From positions 1 through 64,000 of the IMG/VR virus record IMGVR_UViG_3300042402_003259: a DNA stretch of 64,000 nucleotides; one strand, 5' to 3'. The notes beneath the pieces are model-generated. The model saw only the letters and a list, made by a program, of their open reading frames with translations, made no database searches and was not told the origin of the DNA. The translations under genes and the position numbers were made by a program. Shown here piece by piece: positions 9,958 through 28,591 of the stretch (position 1 is the stretch's first letter; each line of letters begins with the position of its first letter). The stretch is from a virus.

Positions 9958-10332
9958 TTAGTTTAATAGTTCTGAATGTTCAAAGATGTTGCCGACAACT
10001 TTCATAATATTAAAGCTTGCACAATCATCGTCAATTACTTTAAAGAACCAATTTGGTTTTATTTCTTTTAGTTTGTATTTTCGGTCCCAGTATATTTCAT
10101 ACAATCCACAATGATTATCTTTGACATCTTTGGCTTTATCATTTGCTGCTGTATGTAGCTCAACTATGTCGCCGCAATAAATTTCTTTGCCATCTTTGTC
10201 TTTCAGTCCTATATATTCTTGCGGCTCACTTACGCCGCCAGCGATACCTTGAGGTACTCCTTCGTACACATCAAAGTAAATAAAATACTTAGAAACAAAA
10301 GAATAGATTCTGAATTTATGTTCACGGCTCAT
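9958..10332 (-). CDS. YopX family protein
   Basis: REHKFR...EYIGLKDKDGKEIYCGDIV...VVGNIFE. Confidence 0.9.
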   Translation of the reverse strand: MSREHKFRIYSFVSKYFIYFDVYEGVPQGIAGGVSEPQEYIGLKDKDGKEIYCGDIVELHTAANDKAKDVKDNHCGLYEIYWDRKYKLKEIKPNWFFKVIDDDCASFNIMKVVGNIFEHSELLN

Positions 10333-12117
10333 TTCTTATAATGTATAGTGTTCGTGCAATTGCCTTTATGAGTTAGATTCCATCCATGACCATTATATTG
10401 CTGTATATATTGGCAGTTATCTATTACTTTTATAGTATTATTCCTCTTTCCAATAAGGATCCAAGAATAAATAATTAAACCAATAATCACAACAAATATT
10501 GCGCCCCAAACTATATCTTCTGTATGTCTGTATCTCATATTAATGAACTGTCATTTCTACAACATATTTACGGGCAAGATTATCTAGCGAAGTTGAATCC
10601 ATGCTCTTAAAATAATGATCAGGATAACATTCTTTTATCATAAAATCAAGTGCTTTGCGCTCAGTATCGAAAATAGCATCAACGCCTCCATCTCTATCAC
10701 TATTATTATAAACAAGATAAACTGTCATATTATTTAAATCTTTTTAATATCTTTAGGATGAACTGCTGTCCACTTGTCGAAGCGATCAGCATTATACTTT
10801 TCGATGGGAATGTCAAGAGCAGAATCCCAACCGCTGCCATCTTTTCCTACCCACACGATTTTACATTGATTATCGCCTTGATAAAGAATTCCATTATTAA
10901 ATTTAAATCCGTCTGATCTATAATCGTAATGATCGAATACAAGATAACCTTTCTTGATAAGGCGATTAATTTTTGCCGCCTTCTTCAAGATGTTAAGATA
11001 TCGGGCTTTACGCAATTTATTCATGATTATTTAAATTCCCCAATTGAAACATACTCCACAATAGCAATATTCACTCCACCAAATCTATCATCGGCTTGCT
11101 CAATCCAATAAACAGCAACAACTGGAAAAATAAGATCATTAATCCAATTTTCCAATTTCATATTTTCTGGAGTTGTCTTTGGGATTACAGAGCCATCTTC
11201 ATTGATATTTTCTCCATTGTCGTTTGTATCCCAACAATCATAACTAATATCCACTCCCAAAGCATCATCAACTTTATAATGCTCATGGAGAATGCTGATA
11301 TCGTAAGCCCATTGGCGATATTCTTGGATGTTTTTTAGGAGTTTTTTAGTCATATTATTTATTCCACTACACCATCATTAAAGTGACCAATGTATAACAC
11401 GCATCCTACACTCCGATTATCCGCGTAATTGTACGCGAACATTAAATCATAACCCAATAAATAATTTTTACAAATCAGATCAATAAAATTATACTCTTTC
11501 GGAGAGTTAATGCCTAACTCTGTCCTTGCGGGGCGCAATATCTCAGGATGATCCGGTTTAACTTGATTTAAAGCATATTTGAATTCAATAGGAATTTTTG
11601 TTTTGCTCTTCCAATGTTCGCCAATGATATTTATTTGTGTACTCATATATTATTTATTCCATTTGAAAGTCACAACACCATTAGTATCTACTTCATAATG
11701 CGCCGCACCATGAGAGATTGCTTCTTTTCGCATCTTTTGTTCTATTTGTCTAGGATTAATGTTTAAAAAAGTTAAAATCAAGCACAAAGAAAAAATGCCG
11801 AATAAAGCACCAATAAAAAAGAGAGGGATTTCTTCTTTCATATATTATTCCTCAACAGTGATTTCATCATCTTCTAAAAAGAAAAACCAATCATCAAACT
11901 CATCAAATTTTACTGAAATGCCACAGTCACGATAACCACAATCAGAGATCACAACTTCTTTTATTATTTTTCCTGTTATGTCTGCGACTTTTACATCTGT
12001 ATCTTCATTATAGATATTACAAAGAAACTCTTCTGTTTTTTTAAATTGAGAACCAATGAACTTCTTGCCAACAAAGGCGTTTTTAATAAGGTCTTCGGCG
12101 GATTGTTTAATTGTCAT
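10329..12117 (-). other. array of small hypothetical CDSs (10329-10538, 10540-10728, 10734-11024, 11027-11353, 11359-11646, 11650-11841, 11845-12117)
   Basis: Contiguous ORFs separated by a few nt; two have an N-terminal TM segment. Confidence 0.7.
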
Positions 12118-12118
12118 A

Positions 12119-12514
12119 TTAAATATAATTATGAAACTCTTCTGGCAAGATTACGTTTTCAAATACTCCTGTTGTTTTAACTGTTTTGAAAAGAGGAGCA
12201 ATGTCTGAGATAGGTATTGCCGCAAGTCCTGTCCCGATTTTTGTAACAAGAAACTCATACTCAGGGTGAGAGAATGCCGTTGCGAGGAAATCATTAACAT
12301 GAACTTGGATTTTGTCAAGGGGCAAGGTTTGAATTTTCTTGTCTTTTGTGGGGATGCCGTAGGTCTGACCTACCAAGCCAGCCATACCATGCCTTGCGCC
12401 CCAACGCAAGGCTAATTTTGCGGCTCCTGCACCATGCCTAAATAATTCGTTTGCTCCGTAGCAAAAGATTTGATTTGGTTCTAAATGAGTAATATTTTCT
12501 GGAGTAAATTTCAT
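12119..12514 (-). CDS. macrodomain-like phage protein (A1S_2505-type)
   Basis: TPENIT.L.PNQIF..G.N...RHGAGAA...GQTYGIPT...FLVTKIGTGLA. Confidence 0.75.
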   Translation of the reverse strand: MKFTPENITHLEPNQIFCYGANELFRHGAGAAKLALRWGARHGMAGLVGQTYGIPTKDKKIQTLPLDKIQVHVNDFLATAFSHPEYEFLVTKIGTGLAAIPISDIAPLFKTVKTTGVFENVILPEEFHNYI

Positions 12515-12518
12515 ATTA

Positions 12519-12552
12519 TTTAATCTATAAATCCATTTAATCTATAAATCCA
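12519..12552. repeat. 17-bp tandem duplication (tttaatctataaatcca x2)
   Basis: Direct reading; duplicates the end of the upstream gene. Confidence 0.85.
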
Positions 12553-14029
12553 TATAATTGTTTATTTTTCCACGTTTCAAGATTTTTGACTTGATTTTCG
12601 AGGTTATCAACTGACTTGCGCGAACATACATCATACAAGGCCCAGTTGTCAATACCTTGTTTCTTGAAATAATTTCCAAGAAGCAGGGCTGCGTCCTTGA
12701 CTTCTTGAGGAATTTCTCTCCACAAATTAGGATCTGGACTCATATTTTTCTTTAATTTTTTTTGCATCATATCCATGTTTGGCTAAAGCAGCATAAATAT
12801 CTGGATTATTTCTTGCTTGTAAATGCTCAAATAGTTGATAACCATATTTAATATCCCACATCATGTCAAAATAACTTGGCAATCTTTCTTGAGAATCTAC
12901 TTCTTTTAGTGAAGGCAGGTTCTTAATGAAAGAGTTAAATGATTGTTTATTCTTTTTCATTTTGATAATTAAATAAAATCAACTTCACCTTATTCACTTT
13001 AATACCACATCTTTTTGCAATCTTATGATATGCCATATTATGCTCAAGTCTAAGATGCAATACGTTCATCATTATGATTAAGTCTTGTGCGTCTTTGGCT
13101 TTGTTATAAGCTCCACTAGCATGGGAATAAAGATTAGAGAGTGCTACTACGTCCATATTAATTGTAAGGTTATATTATTTTTATCCTTCTTTGTTCATTT
13201 CTTTCAATTTCTTGGCCAAATCAAACAAATAATCAATCTCAATAAAATTACCACTAGCGACACAATGTTCACTGAATGTTTTTTTGTCAAGTATGTAGCA
13301 CAAGGCTTTAATGTTGTGGCTTAAGGTTACAATTTTTAATTTATTTTCGTCTGTCATTTTCATATTAATCTTTCTTCTCCATCTTCTTCACTTCTGTATC
13401 AGTAAAAAAACAACTATCTCCTTTATCATCTACAAAAAACTCAAACTCACAATCTTTAACTATGCGCCGAGTTCCAGTGTATGTTACTTCATATTTTCTA
13501 CCAACGATGTCAGTGTGGGTAAATTTATCGCCTTTTTTCATATTATTTATTATTGCCATTTCCAAACTAATTTAGGAGTTATTTTTTCCATGCAAGACTT
13601 CTTAAAAGTTAAATACTCTTCGGACATTAGATAGTCTTTGTTGTTGAGGTTATTGGCAATACTTTTAGGAACAAGTCCATGATATTTTTTAGCGTTAAAA
13701 TAAAAAGCGTTACCAGAATATGTAATCCCAGAAACTCTTTTCTTATTCAGGAAACCTTCTTTAGTAAGAGAATGCCAGCGGCTTCTTGGCTTGTAAACGA
13801 AAACAACATCCTCATCCCAATAAAGAGGCTCAACTTTAAAAATTGAGTCTTTAAACTCCCCAAGGTTATTTGAATCTTCATGGATATCCATTAGACCGCA
13901 ACAAACAATTGATCCGTCTCGACTATTACAATAATCAGAATAATTGCCTGTCTTATATCCTGCAAGGCCAAGCTGCTCTAATTTTTTCATATTATTCGTC
14001 GTTCTTAAGCTTCTTGACTTCATCAGCAA
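12537..14029 (-). other. small hypothetical CDSs (12537-~12743, 12727-12960, 12947-13156, 13181-13363, 13365-~13540, 13550-~13990)
   Basis: Co-oriented, coupled ORFs. Confidence 0.6.
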
Positions 14030-14151
14030 GTAATTCTATCGCTTCAATCATTAAATTTAATGTTTTGCGAGTTGGTGCGTCAATATCGTGAGAAGAAATA
14101 TAACCCAAAATGTTTTCTGCTTGCTTGATTTTTTTATCGAAATTTTCCATA

Positions 14152-14484
14152 TTATTCTTCTACTTTTTCGTAAGTTGCGTGAAAGATATCAGGTTTGCAA
14201 GGATAATGTTCTCCTTTGACACCAGTGATAATATAATCACCGGGGCAAACAATATGCCCACCTTCTAAAGTATCAATCCAACCATGCCAGCGCATCTTAC
14301 AGCCACAATGATTGCATTGATGATCTCCGTTGAAGTAAGATCGCCTGAAATATCCTACAATCTTTCCTTGTTTTGGTGCTACTCCTGTATCTTCAGATGG
14401 TGTATAAACATCATCTTCTGGATGATCTCCATTCTTAAACCATTGCGTTGCTTCGATAACTACAGGCTTTTTTCTGTATTTCAT
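14152..14484 (-). CDS. PGDYG-like conserved phage protein
   Basis: MKYRKKPVVIEA.QW...TLEG...PGDYIITGVKGEHYPCKPDIF. Confidence 0.85.
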   Translation of the reverse strand: MKYRKKPVVIEATQWFKNGDHPEDDVYTPSEDTGVAPKQGKIVGYFRRSYFNGDHQCNHCGCKMRWHGWIDTLEGGHIVCPGDYIITGVKGEHYPCKPDIFHATYEKVEE

Positions 14485-14644
14485 AATTAATTAATAAAAG
14501 GCTCTCCATCATTCATAATATGAAACTCATCAAAATCAAAATCCCAAATACTCATGCGACATTTATCACAAACAGAAATAGTGTCGCCGCTCCAAGGAAC
14601 GGCGCACTCTTCTAGTTTTGCTTCTTTTTTGACCTTTAAGCAAG

Positions 14645-15205
14645 TCATATCTTCAGCTTTTCAGGAACAAAAGTCCCATTGTTTTCTACAATATTCTCCA
14701 TGATCAACTGGAGACGCTTTTTGTCAGATGAATTTTTATTATAAAATACTTCAATACGATCATCTTCATCATAATCTCGAAAGAATCCGCCATTTGCTTC
14801 AAAATAAGATTCGATCAATTTTAGTTGATTGGTGCTGAATATTTCATTTAGTTTATTAGATAGTTGTTCTTCTTCAATTAAATTTCCCAATCCTTCTGAA
14901 GCATCATCAAGATCTTCAAGTAAAGTATTATTATTGAAATTTGTGCAACTCATAAAGAGTCCCCCAAGAGCGCACACATTGCAAGATTCGATTTTCTTTT
15001 CTACGAATAACTCTTGAACAGAGTCAGTCTCTGCCACAGTAGTAGGATTGTAATGTATTCGCACCCAACATCCACTCTCAGCAACATATCTCTTAGCCTT
15101 GAGTTGGGCAAGGACATCTTGAGCAATCATTACTCTTTTTTGAGCTTTGGTTGCTTTTTTAAATTCTGCGTTCAATTTATTAATTTTATTCATAATTAAA
15201 TCCAC
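14645..15205 (-). CDS. hypothetical protein
   Basis: 186-aa ORF with CxxCALG motif. Confidence 0.7.
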   Translation of the reverse strand: MDLIMNKINKLNAEFKKATKAQKRVMIAQDVLAQLKAKRYVAESGCWVRIHYNPTTVAETDSVQELFVEKKIESCNVCALGGLFMSCTNFNNNTLLEDLDDASEGLGNLIEEEQLSNKLNEIFSTNQLKLIESYFEANGGFFRDYDEDDRIEVFYNKNSSDKKRLQLIMENIVENNGTFVPEKLKI

Positions 15206-15543
15206 TTTCTATGCTCTTCGTGAACTTCTTCGACCCCATTATAATCTTCAATATACCATTTGATACCATCAGGCACTTCAACAATCTTCAGTTTGGTATA
15301 ACGAGCATTTGCTAAATCGCCAAGCTGTTCGACAACTTCAATAAGAATTGGATCAGTTCTTTCGATGTCCCATTCGGCAAATCCACTTCCCGGCTTCTCT
15401 TCATTTAGATAGTAATGGTATAGGTCTTTAATCACTTCATCTTGTTTAGCTATGATGTTAAGACCTTTCTTCTCACCATACAAGAGAACAGCTTCTTTGC
15501 TAAGATGAAAGCCGCCGTGTTTTTTATTGATTACTATTTTCAT
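15196..15543 (-). CDS. conserved phage hypothetical protein, paralog of 24228-24521
   Basis: KIVIN..HGGF.LS...R.DP.L.EVVE.LG..AN..YT.LKI.E.P. Confidence 0.8.
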   Translation of the reverse strand: MKIVINKKHGGFHLSKEAVLLYGEKKGLNIIAKQDEVIKDLYHYYLNEEKPGSGFAEWDIERTDPILIEVVEQLGDLANARYTKLKIVEVPDGIKWYIEDYNGVEEVHEEHRKWI

Positions 15544-15914
15544 ATCTTTTTAATGCTAACGCTTTCACTATAATAACCATTTGATTCGCCAAGAAACCAA
15601 AACTCTAAACTGGCGTTTTTAGTTTTTAAAGCGTATTTAGTCCAAGTGTGGCTGTAAAGTCTATCGTATTCAGTATACCAATCAGGATCATTTGCGCCAG
15701 CATCTTCTTCAGCAAAGATTATTTCTTCATTGAGAATATCTTTCTCGTCTCCAATAACATTTTCGACGAAAACGCTTTCGCAGCAATCTTGATGATGATA
15801 TAATTTATAAGTTGTTTGATTGGTTACAATATGTACTTCTGGACTGTCTTTTTCTAAACCAGTTATTTCTTTAACGATCTGGCCCTTTAATTCGAAAAAA
15901 TTTGCATCACTCAT
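15540..15914 (-). CDS. conserved phage hypothetical protein
   Basis: YHHQDCCESV...W.GESNGYYSE family motifs; start moved to ATG after the promoter. Confidence 0.8.
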   Translation of the reverse strand: MSDANFFELKGQIVKEITGLEKDSPEVHIVTNQTTYKLYHHQDCCESVFVENVIGDEKDILNEEIIFAEEDAGANDPDWYTEYDRLYSHTWTKYALKTKNASLEFWFLGESNGYYSESVSIKKI

Positions 15915-15984
15915 AATCGTGCGAACATGATGGCAGAAAAATTTCCCCTTGTCAAGCGGCATTTTTCGGTGTAAGAAAATATGT

Positions 15985-16878
15985 ATGACAACCTTACAGC
16001 AGCTAGTCGCAGATCACGCAATTTTAATCCAAAAAATAATTGCAGAAGCTAAAAACGAAGCTTTAAATGATGCGCCCAAACCAAAATCTATAACCACAAA
16101 TAAATTAGATCTATTTTCTCATATCTCTTCTAACTTCGATAATTTAATTAAGGATAGAAAAGAAAAAAATCTCATATCTAGCTTCACTATGACTCCTATA
16201 AAATGGACAAGAAATATTAATTGCTGGGCTAAAGATTTAGATTTGACTGGCACTTCATGTGGTATTTGGGGTTTAGGTGGGGTGGGCGGTGGTACATTGA
16301 TAACTAAAAAACATGTTTTATTAGCTAATCATGTTCCATACCCATCTTTACCAGCAACTATTTATTTTGTAGATAAAAATAATAATTCTTACGAATATAA
16401 AATTATTAAAACAAAACAAGTCGCCAATACCGATATATTAATTGGTGAACTTGATAGAGAAGCTGATGCTTCATTAAAGATATACAAAGCATTACCAACC
16501 AATTATCTTAAATATCTTAATAAGGAGATTAATTTTCCTATTTTATATTCTGATCAAGAAAAAAAAGCATTAATAGGGGAAAATGGTCTTCTCAATACTA
16601 CTTACGGGTCAACAAATACATTAATAAATATTTCCAAAGACTCTAACAGAGCGCAATATTTTGAACCTTTGATAGTTGGAGATAGCGGCAATATTGTTTC
16701 TACTATTATTAATAATGAAGTTGTATTGATCGGCGGCTGGTATATGACACTTGGAGCTATGGCTGGCTTGGCAACAAATATTCCTAGTTATATAAATGAA
16801 GTAAATAATACAATATCTTCATTAAGTAGTGGATATAAAATTAATGAAGTAGACTTGAGTGGATTTAAAATGTATTGA
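15985..16878 (+). CDS. trypsin-like serine protease
   Basis: GGTLIT..HVLLANH (His), TDI (Asp), GDSG (Ser) catalytic triad motifs. Confidence 0.8.
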   Translation: MTTLQQLVADHAILIQKIIAEAKNEALNDAPKPKSITTNKLDLFSHISSNFDNLIKDRKEKNLISSFTMTPIKWTRNINCWAKDLDLTGTSCGIWGLGGVGGGTLITKKHVLLANHVPYPSLPATIYFVDKNNNSYEYKIIKTKQVANTDILIGELDREADASLKIYKALPTNYLKYLNKEINFPILYSDQEKKALIGENGLLNTTYGSTNTLINISKDSNRAQYFEPLIVGDSGNIVSTIINNEVVLIGGWYMTLGAMAGLATNIPSYINEVNNTISSLSSGYKINEVDLSGFKMY

Positions 16879-16881
16879 AAA

Positions 16882-16967
16882 TGGTGGGAGCAGATAGATT
16901 CGAACTATCGTAGGCGTGAGCCGGGACATTTACAGTGTCCTGCAATTGACCACTATGCGATACTCCC
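16882..16967 (-). tRNA. tRNA-Tyr(GUA)
   Basis: Cloverleaf GGGAGTA/TGCTCCC, anticodon loop CTGTAAA, long variable arm, CCA. Confidence 0.95.
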
Positions 16968-17022
16968 AAAAATAATTATTGAATTCCTAGTTCATTTGGA
17001 TAAAATAAGTGTAATTATCAAT

Positions 17023-17544
17023 ATGAACTACGATACTATCAATTCTTTAGTAGCTAAAGGACTTTCTATTAGAAAGATCTCAACTGAATTAAAAACTAGT
17101 CCTACAAATATTAGATACTGGCTTAAGAAATTCAATATTAAAACTATACCTCGCTCAGAAGTTTCTGATTATAGATATTGTCCACGATGTGAAACAGAAA
17201 AATTAAAGACTGAATTTTATAATCGCCGCAATGGTGTTGGTAATTCTGTTTACTGTAAGCCATGCACTCATACTCAAACTCTTGAAAGACAAAGAGATTT
17301 TAAACAAAAGTGCGTTGATTATAAAGGCGGACAATGCGTTTGTTGTGGTTATAAAAAAACAAATAACGCTTTAGAATTTCATCACTTAGATCCTTTAGAA
17401 AAAGATTTTTGTATTTCTTCAGTAAGATTTACTAAATTTGATGATAGAGTTACAAAAGAATTAAATAAGTGCGCTTTAGTTTGTAGAAACTGTCACGCTG
17501 AAATACACGCTGGAGTTATTGATTTATTACCTTATAAAATATAA
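17023..17544 (+). CDS. HNH endonuclease with N-terminal HTH (free-standing, within the tRNA island)
   Basis: GLSIRKIS..L HTH; CxxC; GG.C..CGY...ALEFHHLDP...LVCRNCHAEIH. Confidence 0.88.
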   Translation: MNYDTINSLVAKGLSIRKISTELKTSPTNIRYWLKKFNIKTIPRSEVSDYRYCPRCETEKLKTEFYNRRNGVGNSVYCKPCTHTQTLERQRDFKQKCVDYKGGQCVCCGYKKTNNALEFHHLDPLEKDFCISSVRFTKFDDRVTKELNKCALVCRNCHAEIHAGVIDLLPYKI

Positions 17545-17546
17545 AG

Positions 17547-17621
17547 TGGCTGATAGGGTTGGAATCGAACCAACATCGCCAAAATTAACAGTTTTGTGAA
17601 TTACCATTATTCTACCTATCA
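17547..17621 (-). tRNA. tRNA-Asn(GUU)
   Basis: TGATAGG/CCTATCA stem, loop CTGTTAA, TTCGA, CCA. Confidence 0.93.
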
Positions 17622-17630
17622 GTTTTAAAG

Positions 17631-17709
17631 TGGCGTTCCCGACAGGATTCGAACCTGTGACCGAAAGCTTAGAAGGCTTTTGCTCTAAATCCAACTGAGC
17701 TACGGGAAC
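17631..17709 (-). tRNA. tRNA-Arg(UCU)
   Basis: GTTCCCG/CGGGAAC, loop CTTCTAA, CCA. Confidence 0.95.
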
Positions 17710-17757
17710 GTAAAATCTACAACTATCTTATACACTAATATAGTATTGTCAAATTAA

Positions 17758-18355
17758 ATCCCACTAGAAGTAAGTCTTTTTATAGAACGGGGCATGAAGC
17801 CCATTGTCCTTCTAATGAGAAATATATTCGATGTTGGTTTACGGGAAAACCTTCAGAGCTTATTATAATCTATAACACGATATCTTGCATAGATCAACCC
17901 ACCCACTCTCCACGACTACGCCGCTTGCAATCGGCGTATCTTTTTTCAGCATCGTGAGTCTGCTGACATCGAATAAAATTATTGCCCATTGTTGACTCAG
18001 TGTAAAGCGACTCAAAACAAGATCGCTTGGGCGCACTGTATGTTTTTTGCAGATCAGGTCGTTCAGTTGCTTGATGTGTTCCCAACTAGATATCGGCTTC
18101 AATCAATCCAAATAGTTCGAAAAGCACTATTTTTTTAATTTGATCTCTGCCCCAATTTGTACCAGATCCTTTCCGAGAGGCTTTTCACTGGCTACCCCAA
18201 ACTACGTCTTATGTAGACGACTGCCCTCATTGCTGCAAAATTGTATTGCGGCTTGGGTAATTACTCCCAAACCGCAATTTTTCCTCATCTGCCGTCCATA
18301 ACACGGATTTACCAAGTCCTGTTAACATGGGTTTGCTCTTGGAAGCTGGATGCAT
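17758..18355 (-). ncRNA. large (~600 nt) structured ncRNA, possibly GOLLD/ROOL-like
   Basis: GC-richer, no credible ORF, many hairpins and long-range helices with G-U pairs favouring the minus strand; lies between tRNAs after a GTTCTTTT leader; boundaries approximate. Confidence 0.7.
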
Positions 18356-18387
18356 CTTATTGGAAAAATTTTATAAAAGAACAAAAA

Positions 18388-18856
18388 TGGTGGCGCGAAA
18401 GGGACTTGAACCCTTACGGTATCTCTACCAGCGGATTTTACCTGCCACTATAGTTTTCACTACCAGATTTCTCTGTTTGTGGTCTGGACTATGCCTTTAT
18501 CATATTAATCCGAAGAGCTTTCGTTTAGCTCATTTACAAAGGTAACATCTCCCATTTAAGGGCATTCACCCCGAATTAATTTAGATAGGTGATTATAGTC
18601 TCTACAGCTTCTAATATCTGTCCTTTTTATGAACTTCAATTAGCTTGCCTCGGCGTTGGGTTGTCTCTTGACTAGAAGGTTTCGACTTTTATTAATGTGA
18701 GTTTGAAACCTACAAATATCTGACTTCTCACTACCGCACTAGTGCTGCTTTTCATCAAGAAACGAGCCGTTCACCGAATTTACACCATACTCATACACAA
18801 TTTCTCATGTATGGACCCTTAAGAGTCCGCTATGTCTGCCATTTCATCATCGCGCC
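18388..18856 (-). tRNA. tRNA-Leu(UAA) interrupted by a group I intron (exons 18856-18824 and 18440-18388)
   Basis: Spliced: GGCGCGA...GCGGA CT|TAAAA TCCGC...TTCAAGT...TCGCGCC A CCA. Confidence 0.93.
18441..18823 (-). mobile_element. group I intron (383 nt, ORF-less) at tRNA-Leu position 33/34
   Basis: P1 GGACU/GGUCC with U33-G; P AAATTCGGTGAA; Q AACGCCGAG; R GTAGAGACTATA; S AAGGCATAGTCC; terminal G. Confidence 0.93.
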
Positions 18857-18860
18857 AAAA

Positions 18861-18905
18861 TTTAAAGAACACGCACAATCTACTAGAGATTGCGGCCCCT
18901 GTCAA
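18861..18905 (-). promoter_or_regulatory. sigma70-like promoter followed by a boxA-like GTTCTTTAAA leader
   Basis: TTGACA-N17-TAGATT-N6-GTTCTTTAAA-tRNA-Leu; same arrangement at 19966-20010 and 20096-20139. Confidence 0.75.
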
Positions 18906-18916
18906 GGGGAAAAATT

Positions 18917-18991
18917 TGGCAGTCCATAAGAGAATCGAACTCTTGTTAATAGGTTGAAAACCTACTGTCCTAACCACTAGACGAATGGACC
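18917..18991 (-). tRNA. tRNA-Glu(UUC)
   Basis: GGTCCAT/ATGGACT, loop TTTTCAA, TTCGA, CCA. Confidence 0.92.
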
Positions 18992-18995
18992 GTTT

Positions 18996-19071
18996 TGGTA
19001 GTCCCGGTGGGATTTTCGCCCACAGTCAATCCCTTATAAAGAGAACGCTTTTGATGTTAAGCTACGGGACC
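18996..19071 (-). tRNA. tRNA-Ile(UAU), non-canonical D and T loops
   Basis: GGTCCCG/CGGGACT, loop TTTATAA, T loop CGAAAAT, D loop without GG, CCA. Confidence 0.8.
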
Positions 19072-19095
19072 ACTAAAAATACGCAATAGCCTCTG

Positions 19096-19168
19096 TGGGC
19101 CGTGCTGGACTTGAACCAGCAACCGACGAATTATGAGTTCGCTGCACAAACCATTATGCTAACGGCCC
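19096..19168 (-). tRNA. tRNA-CAU, probably Ile2 (lysidine type); no encoded CCA
   Basis: GGGCCGT/ACGGCCC, loop CTCATAA; GGGCC acceptor typical of Ile2. Confidence 0.85.
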
Positions 19169-19206
19169 ATAGAAACTACTACATATTAAATTTTAAAGAA
19201 CGAAAA

Positions 19207-19356
19207 GAGTAAAGTATAATTCCAATTATGTTTCAGAATATATTACCGAATGACAAACATATTCTTACTCTTTACTCAAATTAAATAAGCAGCGGGAAAC
19301 GTATTTCCATCTATCATAAATAACACACATTATAATGATAGTGACTTCACTGCTTA
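19207..19356 (-). ncRNA. two adjacent ~70-nt three-way-junction elements (19207-19277; 19286-19356)
   Basis: Closing stems GAGTAAAG/CTTTACTC and TAAGCAGTG/CGCTGCTTA, each enclosing one long and one short hairpin. Confidence 0.45.
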
Positions 19357-19379
19357 AAATTTAAAAGAACTGAAAAAAA

Positions 19380-19963
19380 TGGTGCAATCGGCGGGGAACG
19401 ATCCCGCGACTCACAGATTAAACCTACCACTATAGTTTTCACTACCAGTAGAATGTTGTTACATAATTGATTGAATACTAATTACCAATTACTAAACTTC
19501 ATTGGATACAGATTTCTCCCTACTACTGTTTGTGGTCTGGACTATGCCTTTATCATAATTAGCTGTCAGGGGTTCCTCTCTTGCGAGTTTAGCTTACCCG
19601 ACGATTCTCATGCCTTTACCGTGCTAATTTTAGATAGGTGATTATAGTCTCTACACGTTTTTTATTATGAGGCTATAGAATTTATCACAATTAAGTGGCT
19701 AGACGGGTAGCCTAGCAATCATGGTAGGTCACTATTGCGCCTATTTACCCACAATCCTTTCTTCTATTATTTCTCTAGCGTTTGCCTAAAACTTCGCTCG
19801 GCGTTGGGGGCATATATTTACATATTGCAGATTCTTTTGAAATCTGTCATTGCTACCCGTTCACCGAATTTACACCTTACTCATGCACAGTTTCCTATAC
19901 ATGGACCCTTGTTATCTTGCGATAACATCAAGTCTGTTGCTCTACCAACTGAGCTACGATTGC
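19380..19963 (-). tRNA. tRNA-Lys(UUU) interrupted by a group I intron (exons 19963-19931 and 19422-19380)
   Basis: Spliced: GCAATCG TA GCTC...ACAGA CT|TTTAA TCTGT...CGATTGC A CCA. Confidence 0.92.
19423..19930 (-). mobile_element. group I intron (508 nt, ORF-less) at tRNA-Lys position 33/34
   Basis: Same P/Q/R/S core blocks as the tRNA-Leu intron, IGS GGUC, terminal G, larger P6 and P9 insertions. Confidence 0.92.
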
Positions 19964-20019
19964 ATTTTAAAGAACTTCAACATCCTACTTTAGTATGTTG
20001 CCTTTGTCAAGGGGAAACT

Positions 20020-20092
20020 TAGCGGGTATCGGATTCGAACCGATGATCTTCACGTTATGAGCGTGACGAGATGACCTCTTCTCCAACCCGCA
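20020..20092 (-). tRNA. tRNA-fMet(CAU)-like initiator; no encoded CCA
   Basis: Unpaired 1:72 (T:T), GAG/CTC D-stem, loop CTCATAA; anticodon stem TCACG lacks the 3 G-C pairs. Confidence 0.8.
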
Positions 20093-20148
20093 AAATTTAA
20101 AGAACGCGATCAATTTACCATACTTTCACTGATTGTCAAGGGGGAAAT

Positions 20149-20223
20149 TGGAGCCTCGCCAGAGACTTCAACTCTGCTCTGAGGTTTACAAAACCCCTGC
20201 ATCGGCATCTATGCTTGCGAGGC
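20149..20223 (-). tRNA. tRNA-Thr(UGU), atypical D/T loops
   Basis: GCCTCGC/GCGAGGC, loop TTTGTAA, T loop TTGAAGT, CCA. Confidence 0.85.
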
Positions 20224-20241
20224 ACACTTAAATATTATACA

Positions 20242-21171
20242 CTATTTCTTCACACCTTCTAATACTTTACATCCATTTGCAGTAATATATCTAACATTAT
20301 CAATACTAATAAACCCTTTACGAATAAGATACAATTCAAAATCCCTTTGAATCGCGGTTCTTGACAAACCAGTTTTTGCAGCGAGCATAGAAAGAGTACA
20401 GTTACCTTCTTTACGCAAAATATTTAGTATCTGCCACTCAATTCTATTCAAACCGTAAGGAAGAATATCAAGAATATAAAACAACTTCTCAGCATCTTCT
20501 TTGGTAAATCGCGTGATCTCAAATCGATCAGCATAAAGCTTGACTTCTTTGGCGCGAAGCACACAAGAACGTGCATTGCCTCGGGAAGTTTCAGATAACA
20601 TTGATAGAGCTTCTTCATCAAACTCAATATTTGGTAGAGCTTTTTGAAAGATTTGCCTCAATTCATTTGTATTGTAATCTGCAAATTCAATCGTCGTCAA
20701 TCGATCACGCAACGGAATAAATAGCTTATCTGATTCAGTTGTCGCGAATATAAAATGATGCTTCTTGAAATTGAAGATATAATTTGCTTTGCCAGCATTA
20801 TAATCAATTACATGATCTTTCTCTGTAGAGAGAATAGATAGCAATGCGTAAGTAAAGTCTCTTGGCAGACAATGAGCTTCATCAAAGAAACAAATAATTT
20901 CTTGATCTTGAATGTGGGGCAGAAAAACTTGTTCGAAAAACTGATTCCCCGATTTAATACTAGAGCTATTTAGCTCAAGCAGTGGCTTATTGACTCCGGT
21001 GGTGTTATAAATGTTCTTGGCAAATTCGCGAACAAATGCAGTCTTGCCTAGACCTTTTGCGCCAACGAAATTCAAAAACGGTACAAGTTCAGTCTTAGCA
21101 TGAGCTTCCAAATAAAATGAAAGCTTGCGTTTGACTTCTTCTTGACCAACAAGTTCAGCGAAGTAGTTCAT
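20242..21171 (-). CDS. ruvB: Holliday junction branch-migration helicase RuvB-like
   Basis: GAKGLGKT Walker A, FFDEAH Walker B, ATTE...PLRDR, SRGNAR, C-terminal wHTH (E.YLI.KGFI). Confidence 0.88.
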   Translation of the reverse strand: MNYFAELVGQEEVKRKLSFYLEAHAKTELVPFLNFVGAKGLGKTAFVREFAKNIYNTTGVNKPLLELNSSSIKSGNQFFEQVFLPHIQDQEIICFFDEAHCLPRDFTYALLSILSTEKDHVIDYNAGKANYIFNFKKHHFIFATTESDKLFIPLRDRLTTIEFADYNTNELRQIFQKALPNIEFDEEALSMLSETSRGNARSCVLRAKEVKLYADRFEITRFTKEDAEKLFYILDILPYGLNRIEWQILNILRKEGNCTLSMLAAKTGLSRTAIQRDFELYLIRKGFISIDNVRYITANGCKVLEGVKK

Positions 21172-21422
21172 TACTGGGTGATAGTGAACTCTGCAACAGG
21201 CTCCTCGTCAAGCTGATTCTGAATCTCTTGAGGAAGTGAATCGCCATCTTGCGCTGAAGCTACAGGCACGTTCTGGTACTTATTGTACCAAACGCGACCA
21301 ACAACAACAGTGGCGTTCGCATCGTTGTTAAGCTTCGCGAGAAGCTCGCCCAACGTGATTTCAACAGTGGAGGTCGCTCCCTTGGGACGACCACGACCAA
21401 TCTTGGGTGATGGATTTTCCAT
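21171..21422 (-). CDS. small AT-hook DNA-binding protein
   Basis: KIGRGRPKG; start at ATG 21422 just after TTGACA-N16-TAAAGT. Confidence 0.7.
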   Translation of the reverse strand: MENPSPKIGRGRPKGATSTVEITLGELLAKLNNDANATVVVGRVWYNKYQNVPVASAQDGDSLPQEIQNQLDEEPVAEFTITQ

Positions 21423-21502
21423 ACGCGACCACTTTATCAGGTTTTTAGGTGCTGTCAAGGGGCTTCGCAAGATTTTTTGAGAAAAATGAGAGGGTGGGGA
21501 CG

Positions 21503-21617
21503 AAAAAAGACCCGATATCAAACACAAGCTTGATGCGCTTCGGGTCTTACTGTTTTTTAATCAATAGATCAAAGTTTGAACAGTTTATATTTGCGCTACT
21601 ATATATTACACTATTTA
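21503..21617 (-). ncRNA. candidate small RNA (GTGTAA-type promoter, hairpin, terminator)
   Basis: TAAATAGTGTAATATATAGTA, then ACTGTT/AACAGT hairpin and AAGACCCGA/TCGGGTCTT-T-tract; no ORF. Confidence 0.4.
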
Positions 21618-21831
21618 TTCTTCTTCACGACAATTATCTTCTTCATCGTCTGAAAAATTATTATCTATTTCATCAGCATAATCTTCATAGCAGAACACGC
21701 AAACAAATTTCTTACCAACTTTTTGGTAATCGTCATTCTCAGTGTCGATAAATTCGCTACAGTATAAACATTTTTTCATACTTATATTCTAATTGTACAT
21801 ATCATAACAGAAAATGTGAAAAAATAAAATA

Positions 21832-22092
21832 TTATTCTTCACTATTTTCATCGTATAGATCTGTATACATATCAAAAATAATTACTTTGTCCTCGCATTG
21901 TTCTAAATAACCTTCGTCACTTAAAAATTTAATTACATGATTGCGACAGGAATCATCTTGAGAATCGCACTCAAATGGATGCTTTAACGTCATTAGTTTT
22001 TTATTAAAACAAATGATATTATGATTACGAAACTGTAATTTAAAAAGGGGATCGAAGTTTTCTTCGTCCCCTATTAGTTCTTTAAGATTCAT
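21832..22092 (-). CDS. hypothetical protein
   Basis: 86-aa ORF in operon. Confidence 0.65.
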   Translation of the reverse strand: MNLKELIGDEENFDPLFKLQFRNHNIICFNKKLMTLKHPFECDSQDDSCRNHVIKFLSDEGYLEQCEDKVIIFDMYTDLYDENSEE

Positions 22093-22355
22093 TTCTTTAT
22101 AAATCTATTATACACAAGTTTACCTAAATTGGCGGCAAACTTTCTAGCTTTCTTTTCAGGCAGTTCAAAAAGATGTGCATGAAAGACTTCTTCGATCAAT
22201 ACATTAAGTTGGCGGCGAGTCAATAATGTTGGATCAATTAAAATTTGAGGATCATCAGTATCAGGAGAATCACACAAACCAGAAGCGTGAAATCTTGTAG
22301 GCGGTTTATTATAATTAACTGTGTATTCTACACCCTCAAAATTCTTGAATTTCAT
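22089..22355 (-). CDS. small zincin-like protein (EEVFH in place of HExxH)
   Basis: G.C......I.ID......L.VLIEEVFHA pattern. Confidence 0.55.
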   Translation of the reverse strand: MKFKNFEGVEYTVNYNKPPTRFHASGLCDSPDTDDPQILIDPTLLTRRQLNVLIEEVFHAHLFELPEKKARKFAANLGKLVYNRFIKK

Positions 22356-22358
22356 AAT

Positions 22359-22730
22359 TTAATTTTTAGGCCATCCACCTGCCCAATAATTATCTCCATA
22401 ATGTATGAAGATTTCTTCGCCAGCATTGATCTTTCTTGAAGCATGAATGTAAATACCCTTTTTAGAAGTTGACCAATGAGCGTTATTATTATCGCTATGA
22501 TTGTATAAAGATATATAACCTAACGCAATAACATAGTTGTTTTCCCCTTGAGGAAATGAAAAAACTATCTTTCTCAAATCTTCAGGAGTTTCTTTCCATT
22601 GACTTTTCCAACAACTACTAAATGGAGAATGTTCTATAATTACTTGAGGAGCTATGTCTATCTTGGTGAATACGCCAAGACCTAGTGGAGTATCTTTAAT
22701 TTCTAAAAAAGAAGAAATAAAATAATTCAT
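22359..22730 (-). CDS. SET-domain lysine methyltransferase
   Basis: GLGVFT, SLYNHS..NA, A.RKI.AGEEIFIHYG..YW. Confidence 0.92.
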   Translation of the reverse strand: MNYFISSFLEIKDTPLGLGVFTKIDIAPQVIIEHSPFSSCWKSQWKETPEDLRKIVFSFPQGENNYVIALGYISLYNHSDNNNAHWSTSKKGIYIHASRKINAGEEIFIHYGDNYWAGGWPKN

Positions 22731-23797
22731 TTTAAAAATTCTTTTAACTTTTTCTGATTCTCTGCGTTTAATATTATAAAGTCAGACCAAGGTTTTCCAT
22801 ATCTCAGTATCTGCCAACACCATCTTAATCTCTCTGACCAACCTAGCGTTCTACCACTCAATCCTCTTTCAAATAAACTTAAGCATACTTCTTCATCATC
22901 GAACTTCTCAACAAGAAGCCCATGACTATAACAATCGCAAATAAGAAACTCAGAGTCTTTTTCTTCTTTCACTTTATCATTAAAAAATTATGTACTCGCC
23001 AGACTCTACTAGATAAAAAGCACAAAGCTTTGTATACTTTATCGCAAATAAATTTAAGAATCTTATTGTATGGATTCAAGAAATACTTATATCGACGAGT
23101 TTTTCTAAATTCGTCCCATTCTCGTAATTTATTATGGAATTCTATGTCTTTTTTTTTGCGTTCGCCATTTGCGGTGGCTTCGAAAGTAGTTAATTTAATA
23201 TCTTTTATTTTACCGTCAATAAATACAGCATCATATACAATCCAGTAATCATAATCAGTTTTATTCGAACTAAAAAAATCATAAAATTGTACTGTGCAAG
23301 TTTTATTTACAGATTCAAGCCATGTCTTTTTAGTTTTTATATGTCCTACTTTATCTAAAAAGCCTTTGGCATTTGGATCTCCTTCTACCCATTCTGTTTC
23401 GCGGCGTTCAATAAATAATTGACCGTTCTCGTCGATGATATAAATATCTAACGCGCAATCAAAATCTTTAGTTTGAAAGCCGTGCGAGCCAGTATAACCT
23501 TTTGGTTCATCTGGCATTGGCAAAAAACATTTGCATTCTATACTGTCATACATTCCCATCTTAATTGCCTCCTTTATCAACTTTATAATCCATTATGTCC
23601 TCAAAGAATTTGCGAAATGCTAAATAGTCTTGATGATCTGCGTCATTCATGCCTTTAACATCTACACGATTTAAATAATCGCAAATAACGCCATCATAAT
23701 AAGATGGAATAATAATATTCTTTCCATCGTATTTTAGATCATCGCTTTGAATAACAATCTTCTCGTTAGGATTCTTCATGTATAAATCTTTCTTCAT
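22727..23797 (-). other. hypothetical CDSs 22727-22972, 22969-~23560 (MGMYD family), 23561-23797
   Basis: Co-oriented ORFs; MGMYD...FQTKD motif. Confidence 0.7.
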
Positions 23798-23834
23798 TAC
23801 GGTTATGATATTCTAGCCTCAGATATAGTCAAGG

Positions 23835-24227
23835 TTAATTTGACAATTTTTCAATATTACCCTCACTATCTGAATAAAAAACTTCTTCGACATTGTAAGA
23901 CTTAAGCAAACTCAAACAACCGGGACACGGTTTACTGTTTGCCAATCGTCCTTTTCTATCAACTCTAAGTACGATCATAGAATGATCGTTAAGATCTTCA
24001 AGACCTGATTTTAAAATGACATCTAATTCAGCATGAGTGCCAACATATCCATCGTGATATGGATGTTTAGATATTTCAGGGTGAGTTCTTTTTCTATTCC
24101 AACCAATTTTTACTATCTTGTTCTTTTTAACAAGAAAAGCTACATGAGAATTATTAACATTCTTCCAATTAGTAGGGCATAGAGCGTGAGCAGTTTCAAC
24201 TGCTCTCTTTAATATTCGCGGCTTCAT
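23835..24227 (-). CDS. zinc-dependent cytidine/dCMP deaminase-like protein
   Basis: HAE...SKPCPGC. Confidence 0.85.
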   Translation of the reverse strand: MKPRILKRAVETAHALCPTNWKNVNNSHVAFLVKKNKIVKIGWNRKRTHPEISKHPYHDGYVGTHAELDVILKSGLEDLNDHSMIVLRVDRKGRLANSKPCPGCLSLLKSYNVEEVFYSDSEGNIEKLSN

Positions 24228-24521
24228 TCATCGCCAAGTACGATGCGCTTCAGCAATATATTCGCCAGAAGTATCGGACATTATTTTCCAACCTATATCA
24301 TTAGGTATTTCAATAATCTTTAAAGTAGTATATAAACCATTAGCCTTTTTGCCAAGCTTTTCTACAGCTTCCACAAGTAAAGGATTACATCTATCATTAT
24401 CAAAAGCATAAGCATTTATTTCTGACTTAGCTTTTACGCTCTTTATATTTTTTTGAATATACAGTATAGCATCGCGACTTATAGCAAAATTACTATGAGA
24501 AGTATTAATTACGACTTGCAT
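24228..24521 (-). CDS. conserved phage hypothetical protein, paralog of 15196-15543
   Basis: VVIN...DR.NPLLVEAVEKLG..AN..YT.LKIIEIP. Confidence 0.75.
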   Translation of the reverse strand: MQVVINTSHSNFAISRDAILYIQKNIKSVKAKSEINAYAFDNDRCNPLLVEAVEKLGKKANGLYTTLKIIEIPNDIGWKIMSDTSGEYIAEAHRTWR

Positions 24522-24825
24522 ACATTGATATCAGTTTTTCGAGTTCATCACAGACAGTTTTGATATCCGCAGTTATCTGTGCTGGAACAATTCCAGCTTC
24601 AGTCATAGTGCGTTCATCTTTTCCCGTGCGCCAATCGTTGAATGCGCGAAGGCGTTCTATAGCTTTTTCAATCATGATTTGTAGATACGGTAATGACGTT
24701 GACAGTTATACCTGCTTTGCCGTCATATTTAGCACCATAATGACGCTTAGATTCCAGAAAGTCAAGGAGATCTTTTTGAATTTTTTCAGCGTCTTCACGA
24801 CTAAAACCTTTTGGAAGATTTAAAG

Positions 24826-25185
24826 TTAAATAAAAATTTGGTTGATGCATAACTTATAGATTATCCAGATAGTAAATATGTGCCAAACATTGTCAACAAC
24901 AATTAATGACCAAGGGGCAAACGGAGGTTTGGTAAAATTTGTTTGCCCAATTTTTTTCATATACCAAGGAATTAGTTGCCATCTGTCTTGTATATAATGT
25001 GTTACAAATAGAACAGTAAATACTTTAACGTTCCATATATCACCCATTACGCAAACCAACGTCGCCCATATAAAACAATGTAGGGCGCAAATTAAACTCT
25101 TCTTTTTCTTATTCTCAGCAATAAAATCGAATTGCAGAAGATAATCTGCAATAAGATGTCCTATAATTGCTGAAGTTAAGTCCAT
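24826..25185 (-). CDS. DUF3307 membrane protein
   Basis: GHLIADYLLQ...H...TH..QD...DN.WH. Confidence 0.85.
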   Translation of the reverse strand: MDLTSAIIGHLIADYLLQFDFIAENKKKKSLICALHCFIWATLVCVMGDIWNVKVFTVLFVTHYIQDRWQLIPWYMKKIGQTNFTKPPFAPWSLIVVDNVWHIFTIWIIYKLCINQIFI

Positions 25186-26383
25186 TACATTCTCTGTTCT
25201 AATTCTTCTATACTACCACACTCGTTATAAATATAATCAAACAACCAATCTTCGGCGTATATTGTTACGTTCAATTCTTTAACAAGATCATCGTAGAGTT
25301 TATGTTGTTTTTCTGTCAGATCTCGAATTTCGTCGCGAGTCTTGATTAAAAGTTCGATTTGTTGAGGTGTGAATTTCATTTCCAAATCACTTGAAGTGTA
25401 ACTATAATACCGCACAGACATAATAATGTCAACGTTTTTAAACTTAATTTTTCACCAAAATGAAAAGAAGTTAAAAACGTAAATAATATGATGCCTATCG
25501 TAAAAGTTAATATTCTATTAGGCCAAATCAAACCATTAAAATGTTCATTAATTAATTTGATGGCGCGAATAGATATTAGTGTAGTTGGTACGCTAATAAA
25601 TATTAGATAGTATTCATACTTCTTGAACCATTCAGATAAGAATTGTCCATGAATCTGATACCATCCAATAACATAAACTAAACTAAGAAGTAATATTGCT
25701 AAAAATAATTTCATTTAGATCCACAAAATATCCATGTGTTCTACAAATAATTGTAAACCTTGTGTCTTACGTTCGTTGTATTGCTCGCATTTCTTCATGT
25801 ATTCATCCCAAGCTACTTTTTCTTCAATAGTTTTTTCTCTATTAAAGTAGTTTTTATCTTTAAGATCCCATTTAGTTGATGACTCTGGAAAAGGTAAATA
25901 CTTATCAGGATCAATAATATAATCAAAAGCAAAAATAATTTCATCCATGATGCGATCAATTTCTTTTTCAGCGATTTTTTCTGCTTTTCGCTGATCTTCT
26001 TCTGACAAAGAAGTATAGTCGTTAGGCAAAAATTTCATTGGAATACCCATTTTGCCTATCTTCTTGAGATATTGCAGACGAGGAACAATAAATTTAGCAA
26101 TATTAGTTTCTAAAGAAAAAACATCATCATCAGAAACTCCATAACGAAACTTCTGATACTTACACTTTGCCCACCAACGCAATTCACACCAATTATGTTT
26201 GAAGCCCCATCCAAGTCGATAAGGCAGAAGATCAATAAGTTTGTCTACATATTTATTATATGTATAATAATTATTATCTTCTGGAAACAACTTATTTAAT
26301 TCAGCTTCTTGATCATGCCAATGTTTAAGGCGTTTTTCTTTTTGTTCTGGCGTTTCGAAATCAAATTCAGTTTGATAGCTCAT
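25185..26383 (-). other. hypothetical CDSs 25185-~25379, 25376-25714 (4-TM membrane protein), 25715-26383
   Basis: Coupled ORFs. Confidence 0.7.
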
Positions 26384-26763
26384 AGTGTTTTATTATAGTT
26401 TTCTATATAAGATTCAATATTCTTTTTACCAACAGGATTCATGCTATGCACGACATAAGGTGGATGTTTGATATTCTTTTCAAAAAAACAATAAGCTACC
26501 AACCATTTGGCGCAATCATATCCAGTCTTTTCTTTATAAGAATCATAAGGAATATCATCGTTATTTAATCCATGCCCATAATGAGAATCTGCTAGATCGT
26601 GATCGTAGCAGACGAACTTGGGAACTCCTCTAAGAGTTATTAAGTCTACAAATTCCTTGTAGTTTCGTACAACAGAATAATGTTGATCGATTGGTACATT
26701 AGCCCAAGTTACATCGGTTGGGATGCGAATGTCATCAAGGAATAAATTATATTTACTTATCAT
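26380..26763 (-). CDS. cyclic-phosphate-processing receiver-domain protein
   Basis: LFLDD.R, YDHDL, TGYDCAKWL, HSMNPVG. Confidence 0.85.
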   Translation of the reverse strand: MISKYNLFLDDIRIPTDVTWANVPIDQHYSVVRNYKEFVDLITLRGVPKFVCYDHDLADSHYGHGLNNDDIPYDSYKEKTGYDCAKWLVAYCFFEKNIKHPPYVVHSMNPVGKKNIESYIENYNKTL

Positions 26764-27449
26764 AGTTCGAATGCGGCGATTGTATGCTCAAAAGGATTAC
26801 CTTCAATATTCTTTACTAGACGCAACATCTCGGCGGCAATTTCTCTAATCTCTTTTTGAGCGTCAGGCTTGTTACGCAAACTCAAGAAATGATAGAAAGA
26901 ACGCCAATTAAACATAACATCAGCCTGAATTTGAGAGTTATAAGTCTTGAAATAACGAGCAGATTCCTTGGCTCGCTTGCGACCAAGCACAGGCTCAAGA
27001 TCCTTCAGAGCGGCATGATATAATCTGTTGCCAGCTTGCGTATACATTTCTAACACATCGGCCCAATTTTTGCCGGGAAAATTAAGTTGACTATTTACGT
27101 CAAGATTATTCGTGACTTCAATATTTTTCCAATCATCAGGAATCAAATACTTATCTTCTTTAATTTCTTTATAACGAGCGGATTCGCCATTAACAGATGT
27201 TCCAACTCGGTGTTTTATAATATGAATGTGACTAGCAATATCTGTATCAACTAAGAAGTGAAGAGAAGATTTTTCAAAAGGTGTGTGATGACCTGCATCA
27301 GCGAGCATTTTAAGAAGTTTAGGAATTCTATTAATCTTATCTTCATTTAAATCTCTACTTGTAGAAGTCCAAGCTGAACAAGCATGAACTTGATCGCTAC
27401 CGTAATAGCCAATTAACTGTACTTTATTATCATTCTTATCGTTAATCAT
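26760..27449 (-). CDS. thyX: FAD-dependent thymidylate synthase
   Basis: GHHTPFE, KHR..S.NGESARY, LRNKPDAQKEIR. Confidence 0.95.
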   Translation of the reverse strand: MINDKNDNKVQLIGYYGSDQVHACSAWTSTSRDLNEDKINRIPKLLKMLADAGHHTPFEKSSLHFLVDTDIASHIHIIKHRVGTSVNGESARYKEIKEDKYLIPDDWKNIEVTNNLDVNSQLNFPGKNWADVLEMYTQAGNRLYHAALKDLEPVLGRKRAKESARYFKTYNSQIQADVMFNWRSFYHFLSLRNKPDAQKEIREIAAEMLRLVKNIEGNPFEHTIAAFEL

Positions 27450-28580: not shown

Positions 28581-28591
28581 ATAATATAACT

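Follow-up and report, generated by a model that had tools for sequence, protein, structure and literature searches.

The window, by which we mean the whole 64,000-nt stretch of viral DNA that was analysed, carries on its minus strand an RNA-gene island of ~3.4 kb (~20140-16880) in which ARAGORN and Rfam call only tRNA genes. Inside the island lies the stretch flagged by a first-pass annotation, which had described it as one ornate non-coding RNA of ~600 nt behind tRNA-Leu. That tRNA is real, and its gene is split: tRNA-Leu(UAA) occupies 18866-18385 (minus strand) and is divided after U33 into a 5' exon (~18866-18830) and a 3' exon (~18434-18385) by an insert of ~400 nt, and it is because of this insert that both ARAGORN and Rfam missed the gene. 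A second gene missed by both programs, tRNA-Lys(UUU) (19959-19372, minus strand), is also split after U33 by a paralogous insert. The two inserts (~400-500 nt each) have conserved blocks in common, and neither gave a group I intron match in Rfam at E<=10. Each was partly covered by contigs from RNA libraries, and one contig in each of three RNA runs joined 19656 to 18608, as would be expected if a different phage had a related insert. Between tRNA-Asn and tRNA-Tyr lies an antisense ORF of 182 aa (16996-17544, plus strand) that we call endonuclease-like since by eye it has an HH...N...H pattern ("HNH-like"); Pfam gave no family for it at E<=0.001. A further stem-closed non-tRNA sequence, partly conserved in relatives, is found between tRNA-Lys and the next tRNA (19207-19356, minus strand). 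Elsewhere on the minus strand Pfam identified an ankyrin-repeat protein with a nucleotide cyclase domain (42501-44267), a ClpB-like double AAA protein (54948-57353) and a DNA polymerase III alpha-like protein (57350-59902).

A promoter-like site before tRNA-Leu (TTGACA-17-TAGATT, 18877..18905, minus strand, 10 of 12 positions) would drive a unit that includes the flagged stretch, and a strong one (TTGACA-16-TAAGAT, 17752-17725, minus strand) stands before tRNA-Arg, directly after the last module described below. Since promoter-like sites precede both tRNA-Leu and tRNA-Arg, the flagged stretch (18369-17760, minus strand) belongs to the tRNA-Leu transcription unit, as its untranslated tail. From the 18905-18877 site down to 17752 a single minus-strand promoter-like match was listed, the weaker TTTACA-17-AATAAT at 18006-17978 (10/12), and the scan returned no terminator-like site on the minus strand of the tail. 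The tail is GC-richer than its surroundings, as had been stated (0.41-0.46 against ~0.28-0.34). For its six ORFs (42-79 aa) Pfam gave nothing better than E = 0.15, and the 79-aa ORF runs across parts that are absent from relatives.

Immediately downstream of the tRNA-Leu 3' exon (which ends at ~18385) is the spacer GTTCTTTTATA (18372..18382, minus strand), a BoxA-like element that leads into the first module; the leader claimed for the stretch, similar to those of the tRNAs, is indeed there, as GTTCTTT at 18382-18372. The window contains 11 matches to the motif GTTCTTTWWWW where 3.24 would be expected; six of the 11, which follow promoters or tRNA ends, are on the minus strand at 18372-20105. 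The BoxA consensus GYTCTTTAANA, as described in PMC5725501, is gammaproteobacterial. It is fitted perfectly at 19201-19191 and 19975-19965, and at 10 of 11 positions at 18382-18372, 18870-18860, 19370-19360 and 20105-20095. The leaders thus resemble the BoxA of rrn operons and lambda at 10-11 of 11 positions, and like them stand at the starts of untranslated RNA units. It is a reasonable inference that Nus-factor antitermination operates across this long untranslated unit, in which case the BoxA-like boxes would recruit Nus factors and so shield the RNA from Rho.

Every helix listed in the first-pass annotation occurs in the minus-strand sequence. When these helices were examined in related sequences, they fell into modules that we have named M0 to M4 in order of transcription. 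M0 (124 nt, 18246..18369, minus strand) begins with a stem, P0 (AUUUUUCC/GGAAAAAU), enclosing a three-way junction with a pairing between its two hairpin loops (CCAAG/CUUGG), and continues into a 12-bp hairpin (18277-18246) with the loop AG-UAAUUA. Across 17 sequences, 96.9% of cells in the alignment were paired and 16 of the 30 pairs were compensatory, compared with 8.2 in shuffled controls (0/500). Both P0 and the loop-loop contact are preserved through compensatory changes, UCCAAG/CUUGGA becoming UAUCAAG/CUUGAUA in locus L191 and UCCAAA/UUUGGA in L021. The 12-bp hairpin, already noticed at the first pass, has compensatory changes at six of its 11 aligned pairs in the same 17 sequences, and the folding energy of M0 is low (z = -3.31).

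The next element, M1-M2, is ~265 nt in the window and represents the long form of a ~170-nt core, the structure of which was derived from the covarying columns of an alignment of 33 short-form sequences. M1 in its long form (18043..18240, minus strand) consists of P1 (UUUUGCAG/CUGCAAAA), the internal loop CAAUGA/UGAU, P2, a hairpin P3 and the arm Pc-P4; an enlarged P4 and an extra sub-domain together take up 123 nt (18192-18070), compared with ~24 nt in the short form. The extra sub-domain has covarying helices of its own, with 10 compensatory pairs among nine distinct long-form sequences including that of the window. One M1 helix with covarying pairs includes an isolated G-C flanked by AG and GA, and at the end of M1 a three-way junction holds a small hairpin and the arm GUUUG/YARRC, where compensatory changes are abundant. 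The proposed P1 and the internal loop never vary; read as a k-turn, CAAUGA/UGAU would have its U-U pair on the side of the G-A pairs opposite to that in the consensus. M2 (17975..18042, minus strand), within which the weaker promoter-like match falls, is predicted to be an H-type pseudoknot with a U-rich tail, formed by CAGUG/CACUG, an inner hairpin AGCGAU/GUCGCU and the pairing GCCCA/UGGGC, which spans an A-rich linker (the A-rich third loop). The nested hairpin drawn here at the first pass is present as CAGTG[AGCGAT/GTCGCT]CACTG: its inner stem covaries, pair 127-144 being compensatory in 11 of 33 sequences, and its outer stem is invariant. The two M2 helices other than the inner hairpin are either invariant or differ by no more than exchanges of G-C and G-U. 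Over the 33 distinct sequences of M1-M2, 98.0% of 1517 cells were paired and 13 pairs were compensatory, against 5.3 +/- 1.5 in shuffled alignments (0/500) and 1-5 in slid controls. Single-sequence folding was no better than for shuffles (z = -0.52 for M1 and -0.67 for M2), and the support for the proposed structures of both is comparative only. In five loci (L021, L039, L189, L205 and L202) a long-form M1 and then another M1 copy, in the short form, precede a single M2, and this tandem duplication is the source of the G-C to C-G covariation in P2.

M3 (151 nt, 17825..17975, minus strand) is closed by a 10-bp stem, ATTCGATGT/ACATCGAAT, that encloses three hairpins or stems and a conserved 3' segment. 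The closing stem had been drawn as a long-range helix of the larger RNA. As a helix it holds, since 11 of 12 sequences have it unchanged and the divergent L288 compensates every change, but it closes M3 alone and is not a long-range link. Within it, the hairpin CAGCA/UGCUG, listed previously as TCAGCA/TGCTGA, is present though it never varies, and its loop is able to pair with GUGGGU downstream. The 7-bp stem at 17938-17917, listed as TACGCCG/CGGCGTA, is hypervariable in sequence, with seven of the nine pairs of the stem changing on both sides, while its loop A-UUGCAA-G is fixed; the loop of a further hairpin (~17897-17869) contains GAUAUC. With seven sequences, 99.2% of cells were paired and nine pairs were compensatory versus 4.9 in shuffled controls (1/500); with 12 sequences, 14 of 38 predicted pairs were compensatory. 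In the M3 pattern scan, four loci (L284, L291, L292 and L294) were set aside by eye as chance matches. The folding energy of M3 is also low (z = -3.20). A tRNA-like shape for M3 was considered and rejected, since a cloverleaf is not matched by its 10-bp closing stem and by a 7-bp stem that carries a loop of 8 nt.

The last module before the next promoter, M4 (60 nt, 17760..17819, minus strand; z = -3.26), has an 11-bp outer stem that encloses a small G+C hairpin and, after it, GUUCUAUAAAA, in place of which relatives have GUUCUUUAAAA, a perfect copy of the BoxA consensus. The outer stem corresponds to CTCATTAGAAG/CTTCTAGTGGG, proposed as the terminal helix of the large RNA; it is present and closes M4, and the 14 distinct variants compared by eye have only one-sided changes that keep the pairs. 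For the region as a whole the folding energy gave only z = -2.09.

Relatives of the locus were sought through the neighbouring RuvB-like protein, which matched 17 viral contigs (for 15, the identity was 92-98% along the entire length), and further loci were collected with exact element patterns from viral, metagenome and genome collections. In BLAST comparisons of the island with the first of these loci, the 600 nt proved to be a mosaic of blocks that are kept, missing or swapped in otherwise near-identical phages. In total, 75 loci contained at least one module and reduced to 51 distinct regions, 41 of them complete. Among the 41, M2 is present in 41, M0 in 17, M4 in 16, M3 in eight and the extra M1 domain in eight, and M1 is present in 40, a near-universality that is partly by construction, most loci having been fetched with the M1 pattern. 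All six parts occur together in a single one of the 41 complete regions, which is the window's own sequence (L251 is identical). The order of the slot is tRNA-Leu, [M0], M1, M2, [M3 or an unrelated block], [M4], promoter, tRNA-Arg, tRNA-Asn, the bracketed elements being optional. Between tRNA-Leu and tRNA-Arg, M1-M2 is the core of the slot that stays constant, and the other modules have been gained or lost independently among related lake phages. M1 starts 1-2 nt past the tRNA 3' end in 29 of the 75 loci, and in six loci M2 ends 7-8 nt ahead of a tRNA. In L039, two tRNAs separate M3 from M1-M2, and M3 is flanked by tRNA-Asn at a distance of 5 nt and by tRNA-Tyr at 4 nt; in the window this slot is taken by the endonuclease-like ORF. 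In L020 and L042 a leader-like spacer, GTTCTTTTATAA, parts M2 from M3; the window has no such spacer.

Other contents of the slot were also seen. A block of ~190 nt unrelated to M3 replaces it between M2 and M4 in L001, L003, L007, L019 and others; a different hairpin module stands ahead of M1, instead of M0, in L020, L028, L029 and L033; and in L007 two small ORFs, each with a TTGAC promoter-like site, lie between M4 and the tRNA-Arg promoter (13730-14360). Among 50,697 isolate phage records there was no match to 17700-18480 by distant blastn or to 10000-30000 by megablast. In genome contigs 119 stretches fitted a 17-base M1 pattern, of which only two passed the profile, L095 and L122, both on short contigs, one with the label of a Flavobacterium MAG and the other with that of a gammaproteobacterium. 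Since the other stretches look like chance, no host has been assigned.

Eighteen of the 24 sequencing runs listed, all from lakes or other freshwater, contain at least half of the sampled words of the stretch, and six of the 24 are RNA libraries. In each of the four lake metatranscriptome runs examined we found contigs of 271-317 nt covering 18242 to 17984-18030 at a contig depth of 9-30, one of them identical to the window over 241 nt. These contigs stop at the 3' edge of M2 without a loose end, and upstream they extend 50-58 nt into a module other than M0, namely the hairpin seen in L020. Contigs from RNA libraries prove neither transcription nor ends, and the expression of M1-M2 in nature is therefore a hint only. 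M0, M3, M4 and the endonuclease-like ORF were uncovered in the four RNA runs, which counts neither for nor against them.

The covariation of M0, M1-M2 and M3, together with ORFs that have no Pfam support, bears out the original reading of this region as non-coding structured RNA in a phage tRNA island. The number of RNAs is another matter. Only one helix drawn at the first pass, CGATATCT/AGATATCG, joins different modules, and it is unsupported: its first arm belongs to a locally paired, covarying sub-domain, and its two arms are not inherited together, as L039 has both modules and lacks the second arm, and relatives that have the second arm lack the first. The mosaic inheritance, the occurrence of M3 in another tRNA slot, the spacer between M2 and M3 and this helix that is not co-inherited all favour separate RNAs. 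We therefore propose that the stretch probably encodes four separate stem-closed RNAs (M0, M1-M2, M3 and M4), the structures of the first three being supported by covariation.

Such a unit would be transcribed from the promoter at 18905. Because modules lie flush against tRNAs in relatives, we further propose that they are freed by the cuts that mature the tRNAs, that is by RNase P at tRNA 5' ends and by trimming at 3' ends, and the M2 pseudoknot may then cap the 3' end of M1-M2. The same arrangement, in which each module is stem-closed and abuts tRNAs, could also be read as purely cis-acting furniture of the tRNA operon. On that reading the modules would be spacers, processing guides, 3' caps and, in M4, an antiterminator or terminator, having no role of their own beyond helping tRNA-Leu and its neighbours to fold and mature. 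The position of M4, with its G+C hairpin and BoxA-like box right before the next promoter, and that of M2 as a 3' pseudoknot would suit such roles. We nevertheless consider this unlikely, since long invariant unpaired stretches, the loop-loop contact of M0, the pseudoknot and the maintained palindromes (see below) exceed what a spacer needs, and many relatives do without M0, M3 and M4 beside the same tRNAs.

The idea that the stretch is one multi-domain ornate RNA of ~600 nt, resembling GOLLD or ROOL, with optional domains and assembling through self-complementary loops, is quite improbable in the light of the mosaic. It draws on the collinear order of the modules (M0, M1, M2, M3, M4) in every architecture save that of L039, on a tail with no minus-strand terminator-like site and a single weak promoter-like match inside, on the direct junction of M2 and M3 in the window, on segments at ~18096 and 17885 that are complementary there over 8 nt, and on self-complementary loops like those of GOLLD and OLE. 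The junction and the scarcity of promoter-like matches would also suit one long precursor of the modules. GOLLD, ROOL and OLE are phage-borne and often near tRNA islands, and symmetric kissing loops with covarying palindromes hold them together (PMC12286853); according to the same source, one half of GOLLD, the 5' one, is variable and its linker contains tRNAs. Against this, the full set of parts is confined to one complete region of 41, two tRNAs intervene between M3 and M1-M2 in L039, a spacer parts M2 from M3 in L020 and L042, the only inter-module helix is not co-inherited, and the RNA-library contigs end where M2 ends. GOLLD and ROOL are single RNAs of ~600-800 nt with one conserved architecture, whereas the window has separable modules of 60-265 nt.

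The comparison with Rfam 15 that had been suggested as a check went against the proposed divergent GOLLD or ROOL: neither covariance model matched the flagged stretch at E<=10. Searches of the 3.4-kb island and of a 701-nt segment gave no RNase P, tmRNA, intron or ribozyme in the stretch at that threshold either, and at the Rfam gathering score GOLLD, ROOL, tmRNA and RNase P were likewise absent. The only Rfam hit was a chance-level match to the greA leader on the other strand, so that no family of Rfam 15 accounts for the stretch, as the alternative of a new class had implied. The earlier remark that tmRNA and RNase P features are lacking agrees with this and with ARAGORN, which finds no tmRNA. 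In the literature we found no paper describing these RNAs, which could still be held in supplementary motif lists (e.g. PMC5737381).

We also considered that the modules might be self-cleaving ribozymes that trim the 3' trailer of the tRNA. There is a precedent in the HDV-like theta ribozymes, structured RNAs found directly 3' of tRNAs in gut phages and proposed to process the trailer (PMC10879173), and it is suggestive both that M1 starts so close to the tRNA end in 29 of 75 loci and that the helices of M2, with no P4 and a 'P3' of 6 bp, follow the order a-b-c-c'-a'-b' of a nested double pseudoknot. However, M2 is not directly behind the tRNA, and no Rfam ribozyme family, the HDV family included, was matched at E<=10. 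HDV-like and theta ribozymes are defined, according to the same source, by a catalytic C at the first position of J4/2; the corresponding linker of M2 does not conserve it, having no C in 13 of 33 sequences. A ribozyme is thus very unlikely. That the modules act as DNA, either as small mobile cassettes or as endonuclease target or binding sites, is the least probable reading of all, since the cassette-like presence and absence among relatives with 92-98% identity in the neighbouring protein, the endonuclease-like ORF in the island (16996-17544) and palindromes typical of protein sites are outweighed by many G-U pairs in the stems, which only the minus-strand transcript can form, by pseudoknot and loop-loop pairings that covary and by the presence of the sequence in RNA libraries.

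With four separate RNAs as the preferred reading, the loops of M0 and M3 become of particular interest. The terminal loop of M0 is AG followed by UAAUUA (five sequences), UCAUGA (six) or UAGCUA (three), which accounts for 14 of 17, and the other three keep CAUG. The fixed loop of M3 contains UUGCAA in 10 of 12 distinct sequences and UUCGAA in one, the remaining one having only a 4-nt palindrome, and its other hairpin loop contains GAUAUC in eight of 12 and, by eye, ACUAGU in two. Palindromic hexamers arise by chance about once per 64 positions, and what counts is therefore only that they are conserved while their sequence changes. In both modules the palindrome changes and stays a palindrome, even at the adjacent central bases, as is characteristic of symmetric kissing loops. 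Swaps of these central bases (AU/GC, GC/CG) keep the palindrome, which means that the pairing cannot be intramolecular. The same argument was made for L9.3 of OLE and L21a of GOLLD, where cryo-EM then showed the loops to bridge molecules (PMC12286853).

For M0 and M3 the loop sequences make self-association an evenly balanced prospect, each RNA perhaps pairing with its own copies through symmetric loop-loop contacts. The check for multimers that the first-pass annotation proposed accords with these palindromic loops. Since M3 often has two self-complementary loops, assemblies beyond dimers are possible. That M3 with its two loops and M0 with its one are small RNAs that assemble naturally into dimers, rings or larger closed structures is an attractive but somewhat doubtful extension. 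Among RNAs of such length, manA and others of <200 nt, some from phages, are reported to form cages, trimers and filaments via kissing loops (preprint 10.64898/2026.07.01.735769); the RNAs of the window, whose own assembly is putative, have no Rfam family relation to these.

The closest analogues of the window RNAs are rnaC and rnaD of phage T4, the stable RNAs known as species 1 and 2, which are cut from a tRNA precursor. These two RNAs (139 and 119 nt) lie right behind tRNA-Arg at the distal end of the T4 tRNA cluster, and the gene of the homing endonuclease SegB is within the cluster (AF158101). The window thus resembles T4 both in having small non-tRNA RNA genes that abut tRNAs in a phage tRNA cluster and in having an endonuclease-like ORF in the island where T4 has a homing endonuclease gene. 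It differs in that its RNAs are more numerous, some are larger, and they lack sequence likeness: profiles of M0, M1-M2 and M3 found nothing in the T4 region with nhmmer at E<=100, and blastn returned only chance matches of 10-19 nt. As to function, we can offer only a guess, to which we would give less than an even chance: the modules may accumulate during infection as stable RNA particles, to which some host factor active in tRNA metabolism or in defence would be bound or by which it would be sequestered. This would place them in the same unexplained niche as rnaC and rnaD.

We conclude that these are new structured-RNA families at a known kind of locus. Stable RNAs in phage tRNA clusters have been unexplained since species 1 and 2 of T4, and here at least three well-supported, uncatalogued families share one slot in many lake phages. 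Since the modules are short, their dimerisation, processing and binding partners are directly testable in vitro. If the self-assembly that we consider somewhat doubtful did occur, a phage tRNA operon would give rise to quaternary structures made of RNA alone, with components much shorter than GOLLD or ROOL, and such assemblies might enclose or tether tRNAs or a host factor.
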